Source: a virus (lineage: Duplodnaviria; Heunggongvirae; Uroviricota; Caudoviricetes). Taken from it: a stretch of DNA of 37,062 nt. Below the pieces are notes generated by a model. That model was not told where the DNA came from. It saw only the letters and a list, made by a program, of their open reading frames with translations, and did no database searches. Shown in pieces: positions 3,097 through 33,813 of the stretch (its first letter is position 1; each line of letters begins with the position of its first letter). A program made the translations under genes and the position numbers. Location: the IMG/VR virus record IMGVR_UViG_2718218435_000004. One strand, 5' to 3'.

Positions 3097-5544
3097 TTAA
3101 CCGTCATGCATCATGCTGGCACGGGCGCGCACACGTTTATCCCGCTCGTATTTTTCGAGCGCATCCTGTAACTGGCGGTCGAGCTGTGTCCCCGGCGCAG
3201 TACCACCCGTCAGGCTGATGTGATATTCGTTTTTACTCTGGTCCACATAAGAGCGGCCAGCCGGTGCCGTGACCGGCTGATAAGCCTGATAGCCTGCATA
3301 AGAGCTGGTCGCCGGAATATAACCACCGGTGCCATACGTGGCGGCATGAGTTCTGGCGGCGGTCTGGTCAAGTGTGTCTGACTCTTTGTTGATAACACCG
3401 AGTTTTTCCAGTACCCAGTCAATACCGCTGCGCAGTTTGTTGAACGCATTAAGCGGCAGCATCAGCGCGTCAGCCAGTGCCTGCCCGAACATGACGCCCG
3501 TGTCACGGCAACGGTTCAGGGTGTCCTGGGTGGCTTTAACCGGAGCAATCAGGTTTGTAAACCACTGCCACGCGGCCTGTAACTTTTCGCCCAGCCAGTC
3601 AAACACCGGTTTCAGTGGCGTGAACAGTTCCCCCACCGGCGCAAAGGCCGCTTTCAGCCCTTCCACCACACCGCCAAAGAATGCGCTGACAGGCTCCCAG
3701 TATTTACGGATAAGCAACGCCCCGGCGACAATGGCAGCCACCACGGCCACAACCGGCCAGCTAATCGCCCCGATGGCCGTCATAACGGCACTACCAACCG
3801 TCGTGAAGATTGCCCCCATTGCGCCTGCTGCCGCGATGATGGCATTGATGCCGGTGATAACCGGCCAGGCTATGAGGCCAATGGCACCGATGACACCAGT
3901 CAGCGCCAGTGCACCACCGACAATGATGCCGATGGTTGACGCCAGTGATTTGTTTTTCTGTATCCAGCCGTCGAGTTTTAACACATACTTTGTGGCCGTC
4001 TGCGTGAGATTACGCAGTGCGCCTTCCTGTTGGTCAAACAGGTCAGTCCCCACCGCCTCATAAGCGGACTGAAACTCCTTAAAGTCACCGCCGAGGTTAT
4101 CCTGCATGATATTTACCAGCTCGGCGGTCTTCCCGTCTGAGGCTTTAAACGCAGCGGTCAGTTTGTCCAGCTTTCCGGTTGAGGCGGCAGTCATCAGCAC
4201 GGCGGCGGCTGAGCTGGCCTCCTCCCCGAAAATAGTTTTCATGTATTCAGCCTGCTGGGCAGTACCGAGCCGGTTTTTCTCAAAACTGGCCTGCATTTCT
4301 TTCAGAATGGTAAATATTGGCCGGGTGTTTCCCTTGCTGTCTGAGGTTTTCACTCCAAGCTCTTTGAGTGCATCCCATGCTTTTCCCGTCGGTGCCTGCA
4401 GGCGGCTTAACACGGCACGGCTTCCCGTCCCCGCCATTGAGCCTGTGATTTTTGCATCATGCAGCGCCCCGACCATTGCGGCGGTTTCTTCAATGCTGAC
4501 ACCGGCATTTTTTGCCACAGGTGCGGCATAGGTCAGCGCATCGCTCATGCCGTCAAAATCGGCGGCGGTTTTGTTCATCGTCATGGAGAGAACATCCCCG
4601 ATATGAGCGACCTTATCGTTTGAAAGCTGAAAGGCGGATTTCATCCCCATCAGCAGGGCGGCGTTTTCTTCCATCGTGCGGCGGTTCGCCAGCGCCATAT
4701 TCAGCGTGACCGGCGTTGCCGCCTGAATGGCATCAACATCCCCACCCGCTTTCGCGATGATTATCTGTGCACCGGCCGCATCATCCGCCGAGGCTGCGGT
4801 ATTGTCACCGAGCTGGCGCGCCTGTTTGCGTAGTGCGGTCATTTCGGCGGAGTCTTTTGCCACTCCGAGCACGGCCTGCAATTCTGAGTTTTTCTGCGCA
4901 AACTCATAACCGGGCATCAGCAGCTTAACTCCGGCCATCGTTCCCGCCGCCGCAATCCCCACACCGGCAGCGCCCACCGAGGCCATATTTCCGGCCAGTT
5001 CCTTTCCGGCCTGATAACGCTGTTTGACTGCGTTAAGTTTTGCCTGTTGCGCACTGACACGCGCCAGCGCATCACGCTGACGGTTAAGCTGTGCGGTGGT
5101 TTCACTGATACGGTTTTTCAGTCCCTGCTCATCATGTGCAAGATTGCGGGTATTAATTCCCACAGCGGCCAGTTCCCGCTGCTGGCGTTTAACGGAATCC
5201 GTCAGGCGGTTATATTTCGCCTGTAAGTCCTCCGCCGCACGCTTTGCGGATTCCAGCACTTTCGCCTGAGCACGGGTCGGACGTTCGGTGTTTTTAAACT
5301 GTGTGGCAAGGGCTTCGGCTTCCTGCCGTGCCTTTTCAAGTGCATGACCAGTCACGGCGAGCTGCGCACTGGTCTTGCGAAATCCCTCAATACGGGATGC
5401 GTGACCGTTCAGCTCGCGCAGTGATTTTTGTGTTTCCCGGATATCCCCCGACAGCGACTTGCTCGCTGTGCGGATGGATTTAAACGGGCGGGATGCCTGG
5501 TCAACAGCCCTGAGCAATACCTGTAATTTTACATTGTTACTCAT
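3097..5544 (-). CDS. T: Tail tape measure protein T
   Basis: 815 aa (P2 gpT is 815 aa); coiled-coil-rich N-terminal half and Gly/Ala-rich hydrophobic central region typical of tape measure proteins. Confidence 0.9.
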   Translation of the reverse strand: MSNNVKLQVLLRAVDQASRPFKSIRTASKSLSGDIRETQKSLRELNGHASRIEGFRKTSAQLAVTGHALEKARQEAEALATQFKNTERPTRAQAKVLESAKRAAEDLQAKYNRLTDSVKRQQRELAAVGINTRNLAHDEQGLKNRISETTAQLNRQRDALARVSAQQAKLNAVKQRYQAGKELAGNMASVGAAGVGIAAAGTMAGVKLLMPGYEFAQKNSELQAVLGVAKDSAEMTALRKQARQLGDNTAASADDAAGAQIIIAKAGGDVDAIQAATPVTLNMALANRRTMEENAALLMGMKSAFQLSNDKVAHIGDVLSMTMNKTAADFDGMSDALTYAAPVAKNAGVSIEETAAMVGALHDAKITGSMAGTGSRAVLSRLQAPTGKAWDALKELGVKTSDSKGNTRPIFTILKEMQASFEKNRLGTAQQAEYMKTIFGEEASSAAAVLMTAASTGKLDKLTAAFKASDGKTAELVNIMQDNLGGDFKEFQSAYEAVGTDLFDQQEGALRNLTQTATKYVLKLDGWIQKNKSLASTIGIIVGGALALTGVIGAIGLIAWPVITGINAIIAAAGAMGAIFTTVGSAVMTAIGAISWPVVAVVAAIVAGALLIRKYWEPVSAFFGGVVEGLKAAFAPVGELFTPLKPVFDWLGEKLQAAWQWFTNLIAPVKATQDTLNRCRDTGVMFGQALADALMLPLNAFNKLRSGIDWVLEKLGVINKESDTLDQTAARTHAATYGTGGYIPATSSYAGYQAYQPVTAPAGRSYVDQSKNEYHISLTGGTAPGTQLDRQLQDALEKYERDKRVRARASMMHDG

Positions 5545-27247: not shown

Positions 27248-28252
27248 ATGGATCAGAGAATCCTTGAACATGAAGCGATTAAACAACTTAGCAAAAAATC
27301 AGTGCGCAAGTTGTTTGGGGTTCACGATATCCCTAGAGCCAGTTCACCATTTCGCTATCCAGGAGGTAAAGACAAACTTGCCTCATTTCTCGCTATTTTT
27401 CTTGTACATAATAAGTTAAATGGTGGCCGGTTTATTGAACCATTTTGTGGTGGTGCTGGAGCATCACTTTCTTTACTATTGGGCGGATATGTAAAAGAGA
27501 TCCACTTAAATGATAAGAACTATGCTTTATTTTGCTTTTGGGATCAATTAATTAACAACACTGATAATTTATTGGATATGGTATATCAGAATATACCATG
27601 CATTGACGATTGGCATAAACAAAAGAAAATCTACCAAACGAGTATTATTGACCCCAATAAATACACCAAACTCGAATATGGTTTTAGTGTATTCTATTTA
27701 AACAGAACAAACAGATCTGGAGTACTAAGCGCTGGGCCAATTGGCGGTTTAGACCAGTCTGGAAAATATAAAATTGATTGCAGATACACTGTAAGTACGC
27801 TTATTAAAAAGCTCGAAAAAATAGCTAGCATGCGTGACTCTATATTCGTTTATAACGAGCACTGCATTGATTTTTTAAAACGTTTCAATAGTAAAGATAA
27901 CTATGATCATGATTTCGTTTATCTAGATCCTCCTTATGTTAAAGAGGGGCGCAACATTTATTCAAAAAACTTTTGCTTCGATGACACTCAGCATCGCGAG
28001 CTTAAGGATTACATAGCTGGTTATGCAAATCGTTGGTTAATTTCTTATGACGATCACCCTCTAGTGCATGAATTATACTCAAAACATGGCACAAGAGCCG
28101 TTGAGATAAGTTACGCCATGAATAAAGCAAAAGTTGGAAAAGAATTAATGATAGCGGATTCTCGCTTAAGAATGCCAGAATCATTATTCTCTGTTGATAT
28201 ATTAAAATCTGGCGAAATACCAATGAAGAAAAAAGTAGTTAAAATGGCCTGA
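27248..28252 (+). CDS. Dam-like (D12-class) N6-adenine DNA methyltransferase
   Basis: 334 aa with FRYPGGK near the N-terminus, the SAM-binding motif EPFCGGAGAS and the catalytic DPPY motif; AT-rich; lies where P2 has old/tin. Confidence 0.85.
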   Translation: MDQRILEHEAIKQLSKKSVRKLFGVHDIPRASSPFRYPGGKDKLASFLAIFLVHNKLNGGRFIEPFCGGAGASLSLLLGGYVKEIHLNDKNYALFCFWDQLINNTDNLLDMVYQNIPCIDDWHKQKKIYQTSIIDPNKYTKLEYGFSVFYLNRTNRSGVLSAGPIGGLDQSGKYKIDCRYTVSTLIKKLEKIASMRDSIFVYNEHCIDFLKRFNSKDNYDHDFVYLDPPYVKEGRNIYSKNFCFDDTQHRELKDYIAGYANRWLISYDDHPLVHELYSKHGTRAVEISYAMNKAKVGKELMIADSRLRMPESLFSVDILKSGEIPMKKKVVKMA

Positions 28253-28254
28253 TA

Positions 28255-29274
28255 TCAGGCCGCTTCTGCTTGTAATGTTTCAGTTGTAGAAATCACATAT
28301 TGTGAAATATCATTTATTTCATCTTTCCGTTCTATTAGTAGCCCTGGATCTGATACCAACAGTTCTAACCCTTTCTTAAAGCAAGTAGGTAACCGGAGTC
28401 TATGCAATACTGCGCCAAACTCCTCTGCGACTAGTGAAATATGGTCTTTCTTTATAGATTCATCATCACTCTCAAAATCAAAAGGTATAACAATAGCATC
28501 AGTTATTCTATATATTCTTTGCGCTAACCAGTGATTTTGTATGTTTGCAATATCCTCTTTTATTGCTTTTGAACGCCAATCTTGGCCGCTAGCAACTTGA
28601 GCAAAATAAATTTGCTTGCTTCCCGGATATGTATCGCGGGGATTATTATCTTTCCATGCAATCACATCAATACCAGCATCTTTATGAGGTCGTGTTTGCA
28701 AATAACGATTAACATCCTCAAATGGTCTAACCCTTCCTTCACCAATTAAATCAACAGCTCTAGTAAGAGCATCATAAAACTTTGAACTATCAGGTCTTGG
28801 CCAGCCGAATGAAATACTATGCCCCTGAACATAGCCAGCTAATGCAATTGTTGCAGCAATCTGTAATAAGTCTCGGTGTTTTCCTGTCGGCAAATCTACC
28901 CCATTAAATAGCCGTGATGCCGACATATGAGAAAAATACAAACAATATAAGTATATATGCTGATCTACGGTAAGTAATTCCAATGTTTCCTTTGCCAATT
29001 CCAAACATTGCGTTTCTTCATTAAAAATAAAAGGATAGCTATCCCCGAGTATATCCTTTCTTTGTTGATATTGTTCTAATAGTCTTTGTATTTCATTTTC
29101 GACTTCAGCATCTTCTTCGCCTATATCGGAAGATGTAAATGAATCTAAGTTCTCTAGAATATTCCTTAGTTCTGAAATTCGCATTGTAAAATATACATTT
29201 GATAAGCAAGATAACTCAAGCCAATCCAATTTGACTTGAATATGATGACTCTCTGGATAAGGTTGCAACTGCAT
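28255..29274 (-). CDS. Hypothetical 339-aa protein, second gene of a two-gene operon; possible nuclease-like partner (tentative)
   Basis: ATG 3 nt after the stop of the upstream ParB-like gene with a GAGGAA Shine-Dalgarno; AT-rich; convergent with the MTase, stops 2 nt apart. Segment HKDAGIDVIAWKD...IYFAQVASGQ loosely resembles Mrr-type PD-(D/E)xK motifs, but this is not established. Confidence 0.7.
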   Translation of the reverse strand: MQLQPYPESHHIQVKLDWLELSCLSNVYFTMRISELRNILENLDSFTSSDIGEEDAEVENEIQRLLEQYQQRKDILGDSYPFIFNEETQCLELAKETLELLTVDQHIYLYCLYFSHMSASRLFNGVDLPTGKHRDLLQIAATIALAGYVQGHSISFGWPRPDSSKFYDALTRAVDLIGEGRVRPFEDVNRYLQTRPHKDAGIDVIAWKDNNPRDTYPGSKQIYFAQVASGQDWRSKAIKEDIANIQNHWLAQRIYRITDAIVIPFDFESDDESIKKDHISLVAEEFGAVLHRLRLPTCFKKGLELLVSDPGLLIERKDEINDISQYVISTTETLQAEAA

Positions 29275-29277
29275 CTC

Positions 29278-30405
29278 TTATTCCTCAATGCTCTGCAATT
29301 GATATTGAACCTTAGATACCTTTCTCTTAAACTGTTCGATGTAGTTCTTCGTCGTATCGTCTAACGAATCTGTTCTATCTAAAACAGAAGATATAGTATC
29401 AAGTTGTTTGTTTATTTCCAAAAAAGCATCTTTAATGTGTTGAAGAGGGTCACCCGCTTGCTTATATAATTCAGAAAGACTTTCAACTCCAGACTTAAAA
29501 GCTTCATATGAAGCCTCATTCGCTAAAACCTCACCAAAATATTTCAAATCAGGATTTTGCGAAGAGATCAACGATGCTCTTTTATCTTTTTTATACCCAT
29601 AAAGACCGATCAGAACATCTCTGAGTTTATCAAGATTCCTTTGCGGTACAGGATTCTTTCTGAGTGTAATATTCCAATCTTTCTCCAATCCTAAAAAATC
29701 TTTATATTCAGTTCTATTCAAAGCCGTATACAAATGAGAAAAAGAAAATTTTGGTGACATTCTGTCGACATGAATATCATATATTTCTTGAGTTTTAGCC
29801 TGTTCAAGAACAAACATAGCACTAACTATAGAACGAACAGTATTGTTACTGTCACCAAGTTTTTTTGTTATATGTTCAATAGTGAGACCGTTATCTCTTT
29901 CACTTATAAACCATTTATATGCGAACTGTGCTTTAGCAAACGAATCCCATTTATGGGGACCATTAACATGTTTAAATCCAATAAATGAACGAGCTTCTGA
30001 CTCATCATTAACAAGATAAACAGCAACTTCCTTGAGGCTATCCAAAACCCAAGAATCTATATTTTTTGGAACGACAACTCGACATTTTTGTGCCAAGCCC
30101 GGTTCAGTAAGCAATTTGATGGCAGCTAAACGACGATTACCTTCTAAGACGACATACTTATCATCTTTTTTCATGACAATTAAAGGTTCAATCGACATAT
30201 ATCCATTTTCAGAAATGGATTTAATCAATTCTTCTAAATCTGCAGTATCAGATAATGCTTTAACCAACTCATATGAGTCAGCATTATCATTAAAGCTTTT
30301 CCCGTTATAAAGCCTTGGATTTCTAGCATCCAAGATTAACTCATCCGGGGAAATCATCTGTGTTTTGAGCGGTTCTAAGACAGTTTTTGGCATTTTATGC
30401 ACCAT
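29278..30405 (-). CDS. ParB/Srx N-terminal-domain protein (ParB-like nuclease/NTPase fold), first gene of the two-gene operon
   Basis: 375 aa; NPR box near the N-terminus (LILDARNPRLY) and SIEPLIVMKKDDKYVVLEGNRRLAAIKLL resembling the ParB GxRR arginine motif; AT-rich. The true start may be the first ATG or the ATG four codons downstream. Confidence 0.7.
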   Translation of the reverse strand: MVHKMPKTVLEPLKTQMISPDELILDARNPRLYNGKSFNDNADSYELVKALSDTADLEELIKSISENGYMSIEPLIVMKKDDKYVVLEGNRRLAAIKLLTEPGLAQKCRVVVPKNIDSWVLDSLKEVAVYLVNDESEARSFIGFKHVNGPHKWDSFAKAQFAYKWFISERDNGLTIEHITKKLGDSNNTVRSIVSAMFVLEQAKTQEIYDIHVDRMSPKFSFSHLYTALNRTEYKDFLGLEKDWNITLRKNPVPQRNLDKLRDVLIGLYGYKKDKRASLISSQNPDLKYFGEVLANEASYEAFKSGVESLSELYKQAGDPLQHIKDAFLEINKQLDTISSVLDRTDSLDDTTKNYIEQFKRKVSKVQYQLQSIEE

Positions 30406-30607
30406 AATCTAAATAAAATTCACGTCATCCCATGCGTTCCTTGCCTCTTTAACATGATTTCCATAAATTTTCCATAGAAACATGAATAACGTTTGATGGC
30501 AGATTACAATATCAGCACATATAGTAAAATCAACTAAGACTTCGCAACGCTCGTAATTCAGTCCCGCCAGCCCTGAACACAAGTTTCACGACTGGCGGCG
30601 TTCTCTA

Positions 30608-30811
30608 TCATCTGCGTGGTGGTGGCGTAACTCTTGATTGACCGATATGGTTAAACCGCCCGTAATTATCCCGGACTATTTCGGCACACCCGACCAACTC
30701 GTCGGGCGTCAGATTTTCGTTGACCATAATCCGCTGTAAACGCTGAACAATAGCCATCAGCTTGATATTTTTAGTTTTATGGTGCGGTATCTCGCCTGGT
30801 ATTCTGTGCAT
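30608..30811 (-). CDS. Small hypothetical protein (about 67 aa) translationally coupled to the upstream gene
   Basis: ATG overlaps the stop of the 30811..31266 gene (TAATG); no recognisable motif. Confidence 0.35.
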   Translation of the reverse strand: MHRIPGEIPHHKTKNIKLMAIVQRLQRIMVNENLTPDELVGCAEIVRDNYGRFNHIGQSRVTPPPRR

Positions 30812-31266
30812 TATCCAAGCCACCCGTTTTGCTGTGCACGCTCCATCTGTTCATCTGAATAGTTCCATGCTCCATCCGTGGCAACCATTGCCCCGCCAGA
30901 CATCCCCGTCTCTGGTTCATACATAACAGCAAGGCCGAGCTGATGCATAATTTCATGATTAATTCTGAATACCAGGCCACGCTCACTAAGTTCTTTCCAG
31001 TTCACAATCTCATATGCGCCTGTATTAAGCAGCTCAATACTTAGCAAGACATAGTCTTCCAGCCAGTCTGACAGGTCAGTAACATCTGTTATCCGGGCTT
31101 CAACCTTTCGCCCCGTATACACACCCTGCCCCCATTCATGCAAAATCAACGTGTCCCCGCGCTCATAATTACGGTCATTTTTCCGAAACTCTGCGCGTTT
31201 CTTTCCTTCCAGCACAAGGTCAAAATATTTTGCGTGCAGCTTTATCTCGTGAATTTTTGCCATCAT
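30811..31266 (-). CDS. Hypothetical protein with an N-terminal ASCH/DUF3850-like (PUA-fold) domain, immediately downstream of A
   Basis: Start ATGATG overlaps the A stop; N-terminal MAKIHEIKLHAKYFDLVLEGKKRAEFRKNDRNYERGDTLILHEW resembles ASCH/DUF3850 domains; C-terminal half unassigned. Confidence 0.6.
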   Translation of the reverse strand: MMAKIHEIKLHAKYFDLVLEGKKRAEFRKNDRNYERGDTLILHEWGQGVYTGRKVEARITDVTDLSDWLEDYVLLSIELLNTGAYEIVNWKELSERGLVFRINHEIMHQLGLAVMYEPETGMSGGAMVATDGAWNYSDEQMERAQQNGWLG

Positions 31267-33548
31267 GTCCACTCCATTACTGTTGAGAATCCCGGCCACT
31301 CATCAGCGACCGGATACGTGAATTTTTTCCCGTCATAATTTACAGTCGCACCACGCGCCAGCGCCTCAAGCTCCCATCGCTGCGGCCTGATACCGTTCTG
31401 AGCAAGGTCAACGCGGATACGGGTGATTTGCAATCGTTCAGACCTGGTCAGTCTGGCAGATGGTGCAATTTCATGCGGTTTTAACATGCTTCCGTTTCTT
31501 TGCTGACGGTTTGGTCTTCTCAGGCCGTGTTTTAATGCGCCCCTGAGCGCCCTCACGACCTCCGGGTCATTCCATTCGATAACACCATCATCAACCAGAT
31601 TTAGCACTGCTGCAGCGTGCTCAGAAGGTGTGGGAGCCGGTAACGAAGCATCACTACCGGTGAGCTTTCCACAGTTATTGACAGGACTCCGAGGCGCGGC
31701 GATGCCGCTTTTTAAAGTCAAAGGCTCAACGACCGGAACTTTCGGCACAATGCGCCAGTCCGTCGTTCTGGTGATATGAATATGACGCGCGCCGAGATGC
31801 GGCGCGTAAATACCGACCACTCTCTCGACTTCTTCCTCGTACTCGTTAACGTCACTCGACGGGCTACGGGCAACCCTGACAGTCTGACAATCGCGCGGGA
31901 CATTTGCCCCACCCTGCGCGCTGATATACAACGCAAAATCACCACTGTCTGCGGCAGCGCGAGCAGCCTCGACGCGTTCGTCAAACTCATCAGCAATACT
32001 GACGCCGCGAGGTAATTTGCGTAGTTCACGGTAAGCCCCCATTGTCGGCAGGCCAACCGTTTTAAATTGCGGAATGCGCCACGTTGACGCCCATGCGGTA
32101 ACAGCCGCGGCAGTGTCTTTCAGCGGCCTGCCGGTATCGTTATCGAGCTGACCATCCAGTGCATAGCCGTCGATGTTTTTTGAAATGTATTTCGCGATAT
32201 ACCCCGCAGCACCGCCCCGATTAAGGTGTTTTGCCTGAAAACGGTTTCGCGCGGCTCCTCTTTCGTCGCCATCCTCTTTGAGCGCATAGCGACGCATGAT
32301 TTCGATAATCTGGTTACGCTGGCGCGAATTACAAAAAAGCATCATATGCCAGTGCGGCGTTCCGTCGTGGTGTGGCTCGACGACACGCAAACCGTAGACC
32401 TGTAAATCATTATCCTTGAATGCCGTGCGCATCAGGCTCCAGATACGGCAGAGATAACGCTGCGCATCCTTTGGATTAAATGCCTCATCGTTCCAGCCGT
32501 GATTAAGCTGCACGGTTTTACTTTCGCCTTTTCCTACCTGACGTGTCGGGTGATACTTTGACGGCGCGGTCAGCGTGATAAACATCCCCACATCACCCTC
32601 TGCAGCGGCGTAACGCTCAATACCGGCAATGGTGTTCATCAGCTCCATCCGGCGAATTTCAGGATTAGAAATACTGCCCATCACCTTACTGATAAGGTCG
32701 ATGCGCTCGCCGGTTTCCCTGTTTTCAAGGTCACACGATTTAAGAAATTCCAGATTTGCCTGGCGGCGCGCACGCACATCACGAATGGCATGTTTACTGG
32801 CATAAGGTGAACGGTCTTTATTGACCTCCCCGACAGCAATCAGTAACGCCTCATGCCAGCGCATACGCTGGCCTTTAAGCTGACTAATCCACCACTCATC
32901 GTTAAACAGGCGGGCAATGGCAGAATATGCCTGCCTCGTGGTCATCTGCCCTTTACGGTATTTTCTCCAGTACAGCGGGGAAATATTGAAAGCACGTGCA
33001 GCGCCAGCAACATGACCATACAGGTGAGCCTGCGCCTCATCCGTAAACAGCGATTCTTTTTCGCCATGGGCATCCACCCAGGCATCGCAGAGTTCCTCAT
33101 ACATCATGAAAAGCTGCGATGAGATACGGGCGGCAAACTTTTTCAGCTCCTTGTCATTCATTCCCGGCAGGCGCGCATAGTGGTCACGCTCTGCCAGAAA
33201 CAGCAACGACGCGTCGGTGTTCATTTCATGGCGCTGATTCACACGCTCAATGCGCGGCCATAAACGACGCTGAAAAGTGGATGTGAGGAAATAAAACCCG
33301 TGCACCGGGCTTTTATTGCGCCGGATGTAGTCATAGCGTGAAGTAAACAGCGAGCGCAAAAAGTAAGGCAGGCGGTTAATCGTGGATAAAACACCTTGCA
33401 CCTGACGCATCTCATCACGTGTAAGGGGTCTTTCGCGCCCGACGGCCTCGCGTGGCGCGTTCCATGCATAAGCACCGGTAAACATCTTACCGGTGCCTGC
33501 GGCAAATGCTGACGGAGGGACAAAACGCCCGGAGGCTTTAACGGCCAT
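31263..33548 (-). CDS. A: Replication initiation protein A (rolling-circle nicking endonuclease)
   Basis: Internal start MAVKASGRFVPPSAFAAGTGKMFTGAYAWNAPREAV... gives 761 aa, matching P2 gpA. Confidence 0.9.
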   Translation of the reverse strand: MAVKASGRFVPPSAFAAGTGKMFTGAYAWNAPREAVGRERPLTRDEMRQVQGVLSTINRLPYFLRSLFTSRYDYIRRNKSPVHGFYFLTSTFQRRLWPRIERVNQRHEMNTDASLLFLAERDHYARLPGMNDKELKKFAARISSQLFMMYEELCDAWVDAHGEKESLFTDEAQAHLYGHVAGAARAFNISPLYWRKYRKGQMTTRQAYSAIARLFNDEWWISQLKGQRMRWHEALLIAVGEVNKDRSPYASKHAIRDVRARRQANLEFLKSCDLENRETGERIDLISKVMGSISNPEIRRMELMNTIAGIERYAAAEGDVGMFITLTAPSKYHPTRQVGKGESKTVQLNHGWNDEAFNPKDAQRYLCRIWSLMRTAFKDNDLQVYGLRVVEPHHDGTPHWHMMLFCNSRQRNQIIEIMRRYALKEDGDERGAARNRFQAKHLNRGGAAGYIAKYISKNIDGYALDGQLDNDTGRPLKDTAAAVTAWASTWRIPQFKTVGLPTMGAYRELRKLPRGVSIADEFDERVEAARAAADSGDFALYISAQGGANVPRDCQTVRVARSPSSDVNEYEEEVERVVGIYAPHLGARHIHITRTTDWRIVPKVPVVEPLTLKSGIAAPRSPVNNCGKLTGSDASLPAPTPSEHAAAVLNLVDDGVIEWNDPEVVRALRGALKHGLRRPNRQQRNGSMLKPHEIAPSARLTRSERLQITRIRVDLAQNGIRPQRWELEALARGATVNYDGKKFTYPVADEWPGFSTVMEWT

Positions 33549-33813
33549 ATGAGCCAAAAGCCTCTGAACAACGCCTGCTGAGTTGCTCAACCTGCGCGTT
33601 TAAATCAGCAAAAGACTTTGCGCTTCCGGTCAGAATATCGTGATGCATCAGGCCGGAAACGAGCTGGCTTAATTTCGGGTAATAACCAACCACCGCCAGC
33701 CATTCCTGACCGGCGTTTTTACCGCTTTCCGCTCTCTTTTTCTCGTGGAGAATAAACTGAAAGCTGTCACTGGTAACGACATAACGTTCGCCAATTTCAA
33801 TACGAATACTCAT
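33538..33813 (-). CDS. Small early protein (P2 orf83-like position)
   Basis: 91-aa ORF packed tightly between orf82-like and A. Confidence 0.6.
   Translation of the reverse strand: MSIRIEIGERYVVTSDSFQFILHEKKRAESGKNAGQEWLAVVGYYPKLSQLVSGLMHHDILTGSAKSFADLNAQVEQLSRRCSEAFGSYGR

Follow-up and report, generated by a model that had tools for sequence, protein, structure and literature searches.

In phage P2, gene A belongs to the lytic early operon. Its stop is overlapped by orf91, whose product (NP_046796.1) is a DUF3850 protein, and phages Wphi and L-413C have the same locus at 93-96% DNA identity to the DNA studied here. Recent surveys of P2-like phages delimit the defence hotspot as everything between gpA and gpQ and leave open how these phages swap defence systems. 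For DUF3850, the only functional information that our literature search returned was a survey of ParB fusions; on DUF7415 and on P2 orf91 it returned nothing. We have analysed this locus in a stretch of 37,062 nucleotides (nt) of viral DNA (IMG/VR record IMGVR_UViG_2718218435_000004; the whole stretch is called the window below), where gene A is followed by the genes of a 151-amino-acid (aa) protein, Orf151, and a 67-aa protein, Orf67, and then by a 76-nt hairpin element, all on the minus strand. We conclude that Orf151 and Orf67 are real, conserved genes of the operon and not variable cargo. The interpretation we favour, with about even confidence, is that they are dispensable accessory genes at the far end of a P2-type early (replication) operon. 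The genes and both domains of Orf151 were already catalogued in RefSeq and Pfam as an uncharacterised family; what is new is the correction regarding P2 and Wphi, the network of DUF7415 and Orf67 modules, and the hairpin element.

The DNA at window positions 30400-31400 matches many Peduovirus genomes at 93-97% identity, but P2 DNA matches the window only from ~31043 upward; P2-specific sequence begins at that point, with tin and old beyond. Located in the same place as Orf151, P2 Orf91 is 95% identical to it over residues 1-75 (the DUF3850 domain) and unrelated afterwards. P2 has neither the DUF7415 half, nor Orf67, nor the 3′ hairpin element. It retains just the first 75 residues of Orf151 because the cargo junction cuts the gene. 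Judged by these alignments, Orf91 is a 3′-replaced copy of the Orf151 gene and not a different gene, so that the preliminary description of this DNA, in which the 151-aa protein stands where P2 has orf91, has to be corrected: it is the same gene. Since its Orf91 is truncated, P2 is a poor reference for the A-Orf151-Orf67 locus.

The orf91 of Yersinia phage L-413C encodes a 150-aa full-length homologue, 90% identical to Orf151; the difference is that L-413C has no Orf67 and no hairpin element. The Wphi record (L001, NC_005056) has, at 3436-4311, seven single-base insertions in comparison with the window, each doubling a base, and because of them the Orf151 gene is split into gp91 and gp92 and the small open reading frame (ORF) is broken. 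The 93-aa gp91 is the DUF3850 part and the 64-aa gp92 is the DUF7415 half, as a structure search confirmed. These insertions are probably sequencing errors in the 2003 record, which would make gp91 and gp92 annotation artefacts. Among genomes, homology breaks off at window positions ~30530, 30563, 30592, 30644, 30787, 31043 and 31248; such a spread of breakpoints indicates that the cargo junction is ragged, at times cutting into Orf151/Orf67.

Gene A (31263-33590), the longest ORF, encodes the rolling-circle replication initiator (Pfam Phage_GPA, E 1.5e-122); its RefSeq homologue has a later start (761 aa) and is annotated as 'replication endonuclease'. The gene A stop, TGA at 31265-31263, lies inside the tandem ATGATG (31266-31261) that starts Orf151, as the preliminary description had it, and GGAG is found 5 nt upstream of the first ATG. 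The Orf151 gene (30811-31266) ends with TAA at 30813-30811. RefSeq picks the second ATG, which gives a 150-aa 'DUF3850 domain-containing protein' (WP_061348400.1), and phrog_1812 matches Orf151 over its full length (E 2e-82). The overlapping ORF of ~67 aa that had been noticed downstream is present as well, conserved and with a PHROG family of its own: the Orf67 gene (30608-30811) has its ATG at 30811-30809 and shares one base with the Orf151 stop (TAATG), and phrog_11386 matches from this ATG, not from the upstream GTG (E 1e-38). In the alignment, the 52 residues of Orf67 encoded by 30656-30811 form a conserved core, and the tail behind them is variable and rich in Pro/Arg. We are highly confident of the identity of both genes. 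Both are annotated in the RefSeq genome of E. coli APEC E19035, Orf67 as 'hypothetical protein' (WP_071337454.1). This genome is 100% identical to the window at 30560-31300, while the adjacent 1 kb of gene A (31267-32300) is just 97.7% identical, which indicates a mosaic junction in or near the 3′ end of gene A.

A profile search recovered 87 relatives of Orf151, and database searches recovered 179 of Orf67. Enterobacter, Leclercia and divergent E. coli prophages retain the order of gene A, a DUF3850-DUF7415 protein (154-159 aa) and a small ORF (68-80 aa); Orf151 identity is only 50-57% there, and neighbouring genes have a 4-nt overlap or a short gap between them. In pairwise comparisons with four lineages, where synonymous sites are at or near saturation (proportion of synonymous differences, pS, 0.66-0.81), the ratio of nonsynonymous to synonymous change (dN/dS) was 0.15-0.34 for Orf151 and 0.14-0.33 for Orf67; across these lineages the 52-residue core of Orf67 is nearly invariant and the tail varies. 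By these measures both ORFs lie far beyond chance, and the pair, whose conservation across P2-like prophages the preliminary description had named as a check, is kept in these lineages. One could argue that the 67-aa ORF is a chance ORF and that what is conserved is only the DNA or RNA, given that it is short, has no Pfam family and lies just upstream of a conserved non-coding element. This alternative is effectively refuted by an almost invariant core at near-saturated synonymous differences, by the dN/dS of Orf67, and by fusion of the core, in frame, to a ClpX zinc finger and DUF7415.

Of 5426 complete E. coli genomes, 417 contain the Orf151/Orf67 region (427 places) and 1712 contain the 3′ half of gene A (2008 places). 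Roughly one E. coli P2-like prophage in five carries the two genes. Several complete E. coli chromosome records seem to begin at a prophage gene A: in NZ_AP026937 (L002) it occupies positions 1-2280, and six hits (H38, H39, H41, H47, H51 and H52) match at 2249-2986. Apparently, the starting point of these assemblies was set at a phage 'replication' gene and not at dnaA.

When 52 viral contigs with both genes were clustered by sequence, their Orf151-Orf67 regions all fell together, whereas the downstream 1.5 kb split into 13 unrelated clusters; examples of this cargo are the PD-Lambda-5-like set of the window, old/tin-like genes, a C5 methylase and GmrSD. With 13 cargo clusters behind a single Orf151-Orf67 cluster, the genes are not linked to the adjacent cargo, and the suggestion that they serve the neighbouring cargo island is contradicted. 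We also considered a two-gene cargo module, i.e. a toxin-antitoxin or defence pair of the A-Q hotspot. Both genes do lie inside the gpA-gpQ interval extracted by hotspot surveys, and they overlap each other. Still, neither protein has a PADLOC or NCBIfam match, each gene occurs without the other, both are coupled to gene A, and they stay constant while the cargo that follows them changes. A known defence system or toxin-antitoxin pair was rejected on the first two of these grounds, and such a two-gene cargo module is very unlikely. A consequence of the gpA-gpQ definition is that Orf151 and Orf67 have been counted inside the 'hotspot'; surveys of the cargo thus take in two conserved operon genes.

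The proposal of an ASCH/DUF3850 domain in the N-terminal half of Orf151 proved right. Pfam DUF3850 (PF12961) matches residues 5-77 (31036-31254) with E 3.1e-18 and 66.2 bits (cut-off 22.9), Pfam ASCH matches with E 2.7e-11 and 44.5 bits (cut-off 21.2), and phrog_986 matches residues 1-85. An AlphaFold2 model (mean confidence, pLDDT, 86) has two domains joined by a linker, the DUF3850 domain being a minimal ASCH/PUA-like beta-barrel. The motif GxKxxExR is the ASCH octapeptide. It is present in Orf151 as G21, K23, E26 and R28, and K23 and R28 are invariant in nine sequences. The closest solved relative is PDB 3IUW from Enterococcus faecalis, a single-domain DUF3850 structure deposited as 'activating signal cointegrator', with no DUF7415 and no known activity.

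E. coli YqfB, an ASCH-domain N4-acetylcytidine amidohydrolase, has the same barrel and the octapeptide Lys and Arg. Its catalytic residues are Lys21, Thr24, Arg26 and Glu74 (PMC9599836). In a hidden Markov model alignment K23 corresponds to Lys21, E26 to Thr24 and R28 to Arg26, Glu74 not being alignable, and the profile E-value between the two proteins is marginal (0.78). A YqfB-type N4-acylcytidine amidohydrolase was ruled out since the Thr24 nucleophile is replaced by Glu or Leu in DUF3850 orthologues; on this evidence the domain is to be filed as ASCH/DUF3850 and not as an amidohydrolase of the YqfB type. One may think more broadly of an enzyme, a YqfB-like amidohydrolase or ASCH ribonuclease acting on N4-acylated cytidine or RNA in nucleotide salvage. 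The invariant octapeptide Lys and Arg and the nucleotide enzymes found as partners of DUF7415 (see below) speak for it, but the replaced nucleophile, the E-value and the lack of known activity in 3IUW leave it quite improbable. DUF3850 of Orf151 is probably non-catalytic and may, by analogy, bind nucleic acid or a (modified) base.

The C-terminal half of Orf151 carries a second domain that was absent from the preliminary description. It lies at residues ~87-146 (30829-31008), and Pfam DUF7415 (PF24187) matches residues 87-129 with E 1.9e-14 and 54 bits (cut-off 27); the family motif RIN.E..HP.G.A is found at residues 101-113. The domain, only ~55 residues long, runs from a short helix through a long, motif-bearing helix and a beta-hairpin to a C-terminal helix, and its conserved core reads GL..RIN.E(I/V)(L/M)HP(L/M)G(L/Y)A...G.S. 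The HEIMH at residues 104-108 resembles the HExxH of zinc metallopeptidases; this candidate was rejected, as other members of the family have K, R, N or T in place of H104.

Only 379 DUF7415 clusters came out of a profile search against 1.84 billion representatives, many of them stand-alone proteins of 65-110 aa. In longer members the domain is fused to dATP/dGTP pyrophosphohydrolase (three proteins), a Rv2179c-like 3′-5′ exonuclease of DEDD type, thymidylate kinase, DUF551, PGDYG, DUF5405 (P2 Orf83), a Lar-type zinc ribbon, or the Orf67 core together with a ClpX-type zinc finger. Neighbourhoods were determined by gene calling with the DUF7415 ORF fixed, plus distance-based neighbour tests. 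In enteric P2/186-like phages the DUF7415 gene abuts the initiator, upstream or downstream, and this initiator may be gpA or a Toprim primase, i.e. one of two unrelated types. In T4-like phages the domain is found among nucleotide-metabolism genes, e.g. directly after the large ribonucleotide reductase subunit. Presumably, DUF7415 serves as an adaptor or docking module and not as an enzyme. Around the replication initiators of phages, DUF7415 and Orf67 appear as small modules shuffled into a network that offers concrete candidate partners.

One more small module was seen around gene A, with the consensus S-E-I-(S/A)-D-F-F-A-G-x-G-x-P-G-x-P-x-T-P-E-E-M-Q. It occurs N- or C-terminal to DUF7415 (at the N-termini of proteins P0072, P0074 and P0077, and at the C-terminus in locus L029, 3001-3399) or, in an ORF of its own, immediately upstream of gene A; another site is L037, 3387-3704.

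The main rival to accessory genes of the early operon is a counter-defence role, whereby Orf151 and/or Orf67 would be early proteins that counter restriction or other defences, for example through a PUA-like domain that masks or reads modified bases, or through a DUF7415 that blocks a host sensor. Phage ParB-CTPase-DUF3850 fusions, which are enriched in phages and prophages and uncharacterised, contain the same DUF3850 domain, with a ParB-like partner instead of DUF7415, and are co-encoded with parA; the authors of the ParB-CTPase survey raise anti-defence or phage-host interaction for phage ParB-fold fusions including these. Such a role would explain the patchy distribution, in only about one in five E. 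coli P2-like prophages, at the edge of a defence hotspot. The genes are small and early-expressed, and one DUF7415 protein is fused to the zinc ribbon of Lar, a restriction-alleviation protein, though the match (E 1.5e-6) is just above the Pfam cut-off. On the other hand, neither protein resembles a characterised anti-defence protein, the genes persist in many different cargo and host backgrounds, P2 grows with a truncated copy, and the partners of DUF7415 are mostly enzymes of nucleotide metabolism. We regard counter-defence as unlikely on balance, yet it is the alternative to be taken most seriously.

Orf67 forms an independent family of separate small helical proteins. Its 179 relatives come from Escherichia, Salmonella, Citrobacter, Klebsiella, Enterobacter and others; it has no Pfam family, and a profile search against PDB gave noise only (E ≥ 0.27). 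Among the 80 best viral Orf67 loci, the fused Orf151 lies between A and Orf67 in 53 and not in the other 27; neither DUF3850 nor DUF7415 was detected in 19 of the latter, and 8 had one domain elsewhere in the locus. In Buttiauxella and Scandinavium prophages Orf67 is within ~300 nt of gene A, and in one Enterobacter and one Escherichia sp. prophage other genes lie between A and Orf67; the examined loci of these four had no DUF3850 or DUF7415 gene. Conversely, Orf151 occurs without Orf67 in L-413C and in locus L003. The pairing of the two ORFs made in the preliminary description therefore stands in so far as they are adjacent and co-conserved in several lineages, but it is not obligate.

The genes that precede Orf67 in 186-like phages such as PSP3 are tumA and tumB of the SOS operon, or orf97. 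Gp37 of Salmonella phage PSP3, near the right genome end, is 78% identical to Orf67 and is followed by the same hairpin element; it differs in standing after tumA/tumB, not after a DUF3850 gene, and in having a direct copy of the element on either side. Orf67 is missing from phage 186 itself, whose orf97, tried as a homologue, is an unrelated 243-aa protein.

Two relatives connect Orf67 to other modules. In Pectobacterium (locus L093, 3459-3809) the Orf67 core is followed in one protein by zf-C4_ClpX (E 1.1e-11). The 188-aa protein P0064 of a metagenomic contig (L085, 2597-3163), encoded directly after a Toprim/DUF5906 primase, joins the Orf67 core (34% identity to its N-terminus, E 4e-8), a ClpX-like finger (E 5.7e-4) and DUF7415. 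In both relatives the counterpart of the N-terminal C4 zinc-binding domain of ClpX comes directly after the Orf67 core; Orf67 of the window has a single cysteine and no CxxC...CxxC cluster, and hence no ClpX-type C4 zinc finger. The P0064 fusion, the one piece of evidence on this point, suggests, not conclusively, a common process in which both Orf67 and DUF7415 take part. The L093 gene lies between gpA, which it follows directly, and a D12 methylase gene. In two Trabulsiella loci (L091 and L092, ~3200-3830) Orf67 and the hairpin element form a remnant beside an insertion-sequence-type transposase; cpxR- and cpxP-like genes, judged by eye from translations, lie nearby in L091, and in E. coli APEC E19035, too, cpxP is found beside the integrase of the prophage.

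If Orf151 and Orf67 are accessory genes of the early operon, as we favour, Orf151 would be translated from the gpA message by the stop/start overlap, so that its level should follow gpA early in lytic growth. It would bind a nucleic-acid ligand through DUF3850, as the analogy has it, and dock through DUF7415; Orf67 would be a separate small factor, coupled by the TAATG overlap, and the operon would end in a conserved RNA hairpin element. The genes are dispensable, because P2 has the DUF3850 half alone and no Orf67, and about one-fifth of prophages carry them. The mode of action is put forward tentatively: nucleic-acid binding, the adaptor role, the functional link between Orf67 and DUF7415 and any replication role are inferred.

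Several observations weigh against this picture. In 54 of 80 IMG/VR loci, stand-alone DUF7415 lies in the late operon by tail gene X; 49 of these have it in the L-X interval and 5 in the X-D interval. The motif glutamate E26 is Leu in three orthologues, and no experiment or ligand has been reported for DUF3850, DUF7415 or Orf67. As each gene is found alone, a physical partnership of Orf151 and Orf67 is not required. An early accessory function, suggested in the preliminary description, fits the position at the end of the early operon; the links to cargo and to replication that came with it are not supported, the latter being a matter of position beside initiator genes, with DUF7415 elsewhere often in late operons. 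The late-operon DUF7415 genes (L012, L027 and 52 others among L005-L084) encode stand-alone proteins of 62-70 aa, have overlapping start/stop codons and come from P2-like phages of other hosts.

The 76-nt element at the operon end (30529-30604) comes directly after the Orf67 stop; the window contains it once, and this copy scores 75.8 bits with the covariance model. It consists of a 13-bp covarying GC-rich hairpin (30564-30598) and a conserved tail with the consensus GGGGTTGAACAACGAGC..GCGAGGCGTTAG, of which the window copy is a degenerate version. In 42 distinct copies 94.5% of the cells of the 13-bp helix are paired, and 10 of the 13 pairs are changed on both sides; none of 500 shuffles reached any observed measure, and slid controls were 31-56% paired. 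The helix cells contain 87 G-U against 14 A-C, so that pairing is 94.5% on the operon strand versus 81.1% on the other, and this excess of G-U points to an RNA, or to a single strand of that polarity. No Rfam family matches the element. An intrinsic (rho-independent) terminator was rejected: the tail GGGACUGAAUUACGAG has no U run, and a terminator scan found none. A repeat flanking the cargo on both sides was rejected with one copy only in the window, and so was a second helix or outer closing stem, where the alignment showed changes that are not compensated.

The element is widespread and unannotated: it is present in 513 of 5426 E. coli genomes, and a 15-mer from it in >120 IMG/VR contigs. 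It directly follows stops of Orf67, TumB or Orf97, beginning 1 nt past the stop codon in 59 of 73 cases, and the upstream gene is mostly DinI-like TumB. Orf67 of 186-like phages stands between two direct copies with a spacing of ~405 nt; in phage 186 a single copy follows orf97, and the annotated terminator t95b starts ~17 nt further on. Further copies were located at 2806-2882 and 3212-3293 in locus L104 and at 4844-4919 in L185. DNA homology among P2-like phages ends at ~30530, the 3′ end of the element, which thus marks the left edge of the A-Q cargo hotspot. The element defines where cargo begins, and this bears on how P2-like phages swap defence systems. Candidate functions are mRNA 3′-end stabilisation, insulation or a recombination anchor.

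A bolder interpretation, which we consider improbable, is an undescribed three-part system at the end of the P2/186 early region, made up of the hairpin element, the DUF7415 adaptor and the Orf67/ClpX-finger family. The hairpin, as strand-specific RNA or single-stranded DNA, would be an insulator and/or a recombination anchor that fixes the left border of the hotspot; DUF7415 would be a new adaptor fold tethering nucleotide and nucleic-acid enzymes; and the Orf67 family with its zinc-finger relatives would work beside the replication initiator, e.g. by engaging ClpX.

PP(P)RR forms the C-terminal end of about 45% of Orf67 cluster representatives (window 30608-30625), with the hairpin element directly after the stop codon. 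It is pure speculation that a polyproline pause at the Orf67 C-terminus could influence folding of the hairpin.

Beyond the element, at 27248-30405, the window carries a three-gene cargo resembling the PD-Lambda-5 defence system: a D12 adenine methylase on the plus strand (27248-28252; PD-Lambda-5_B, E 7e-94), an unassigned 339-aa protein on the minus strand (28255-29274; phrog_14650) and a ParB-N-like protein, also on the minus strand (29278-30405; PD-Lambda-5_A, E 5e-22).

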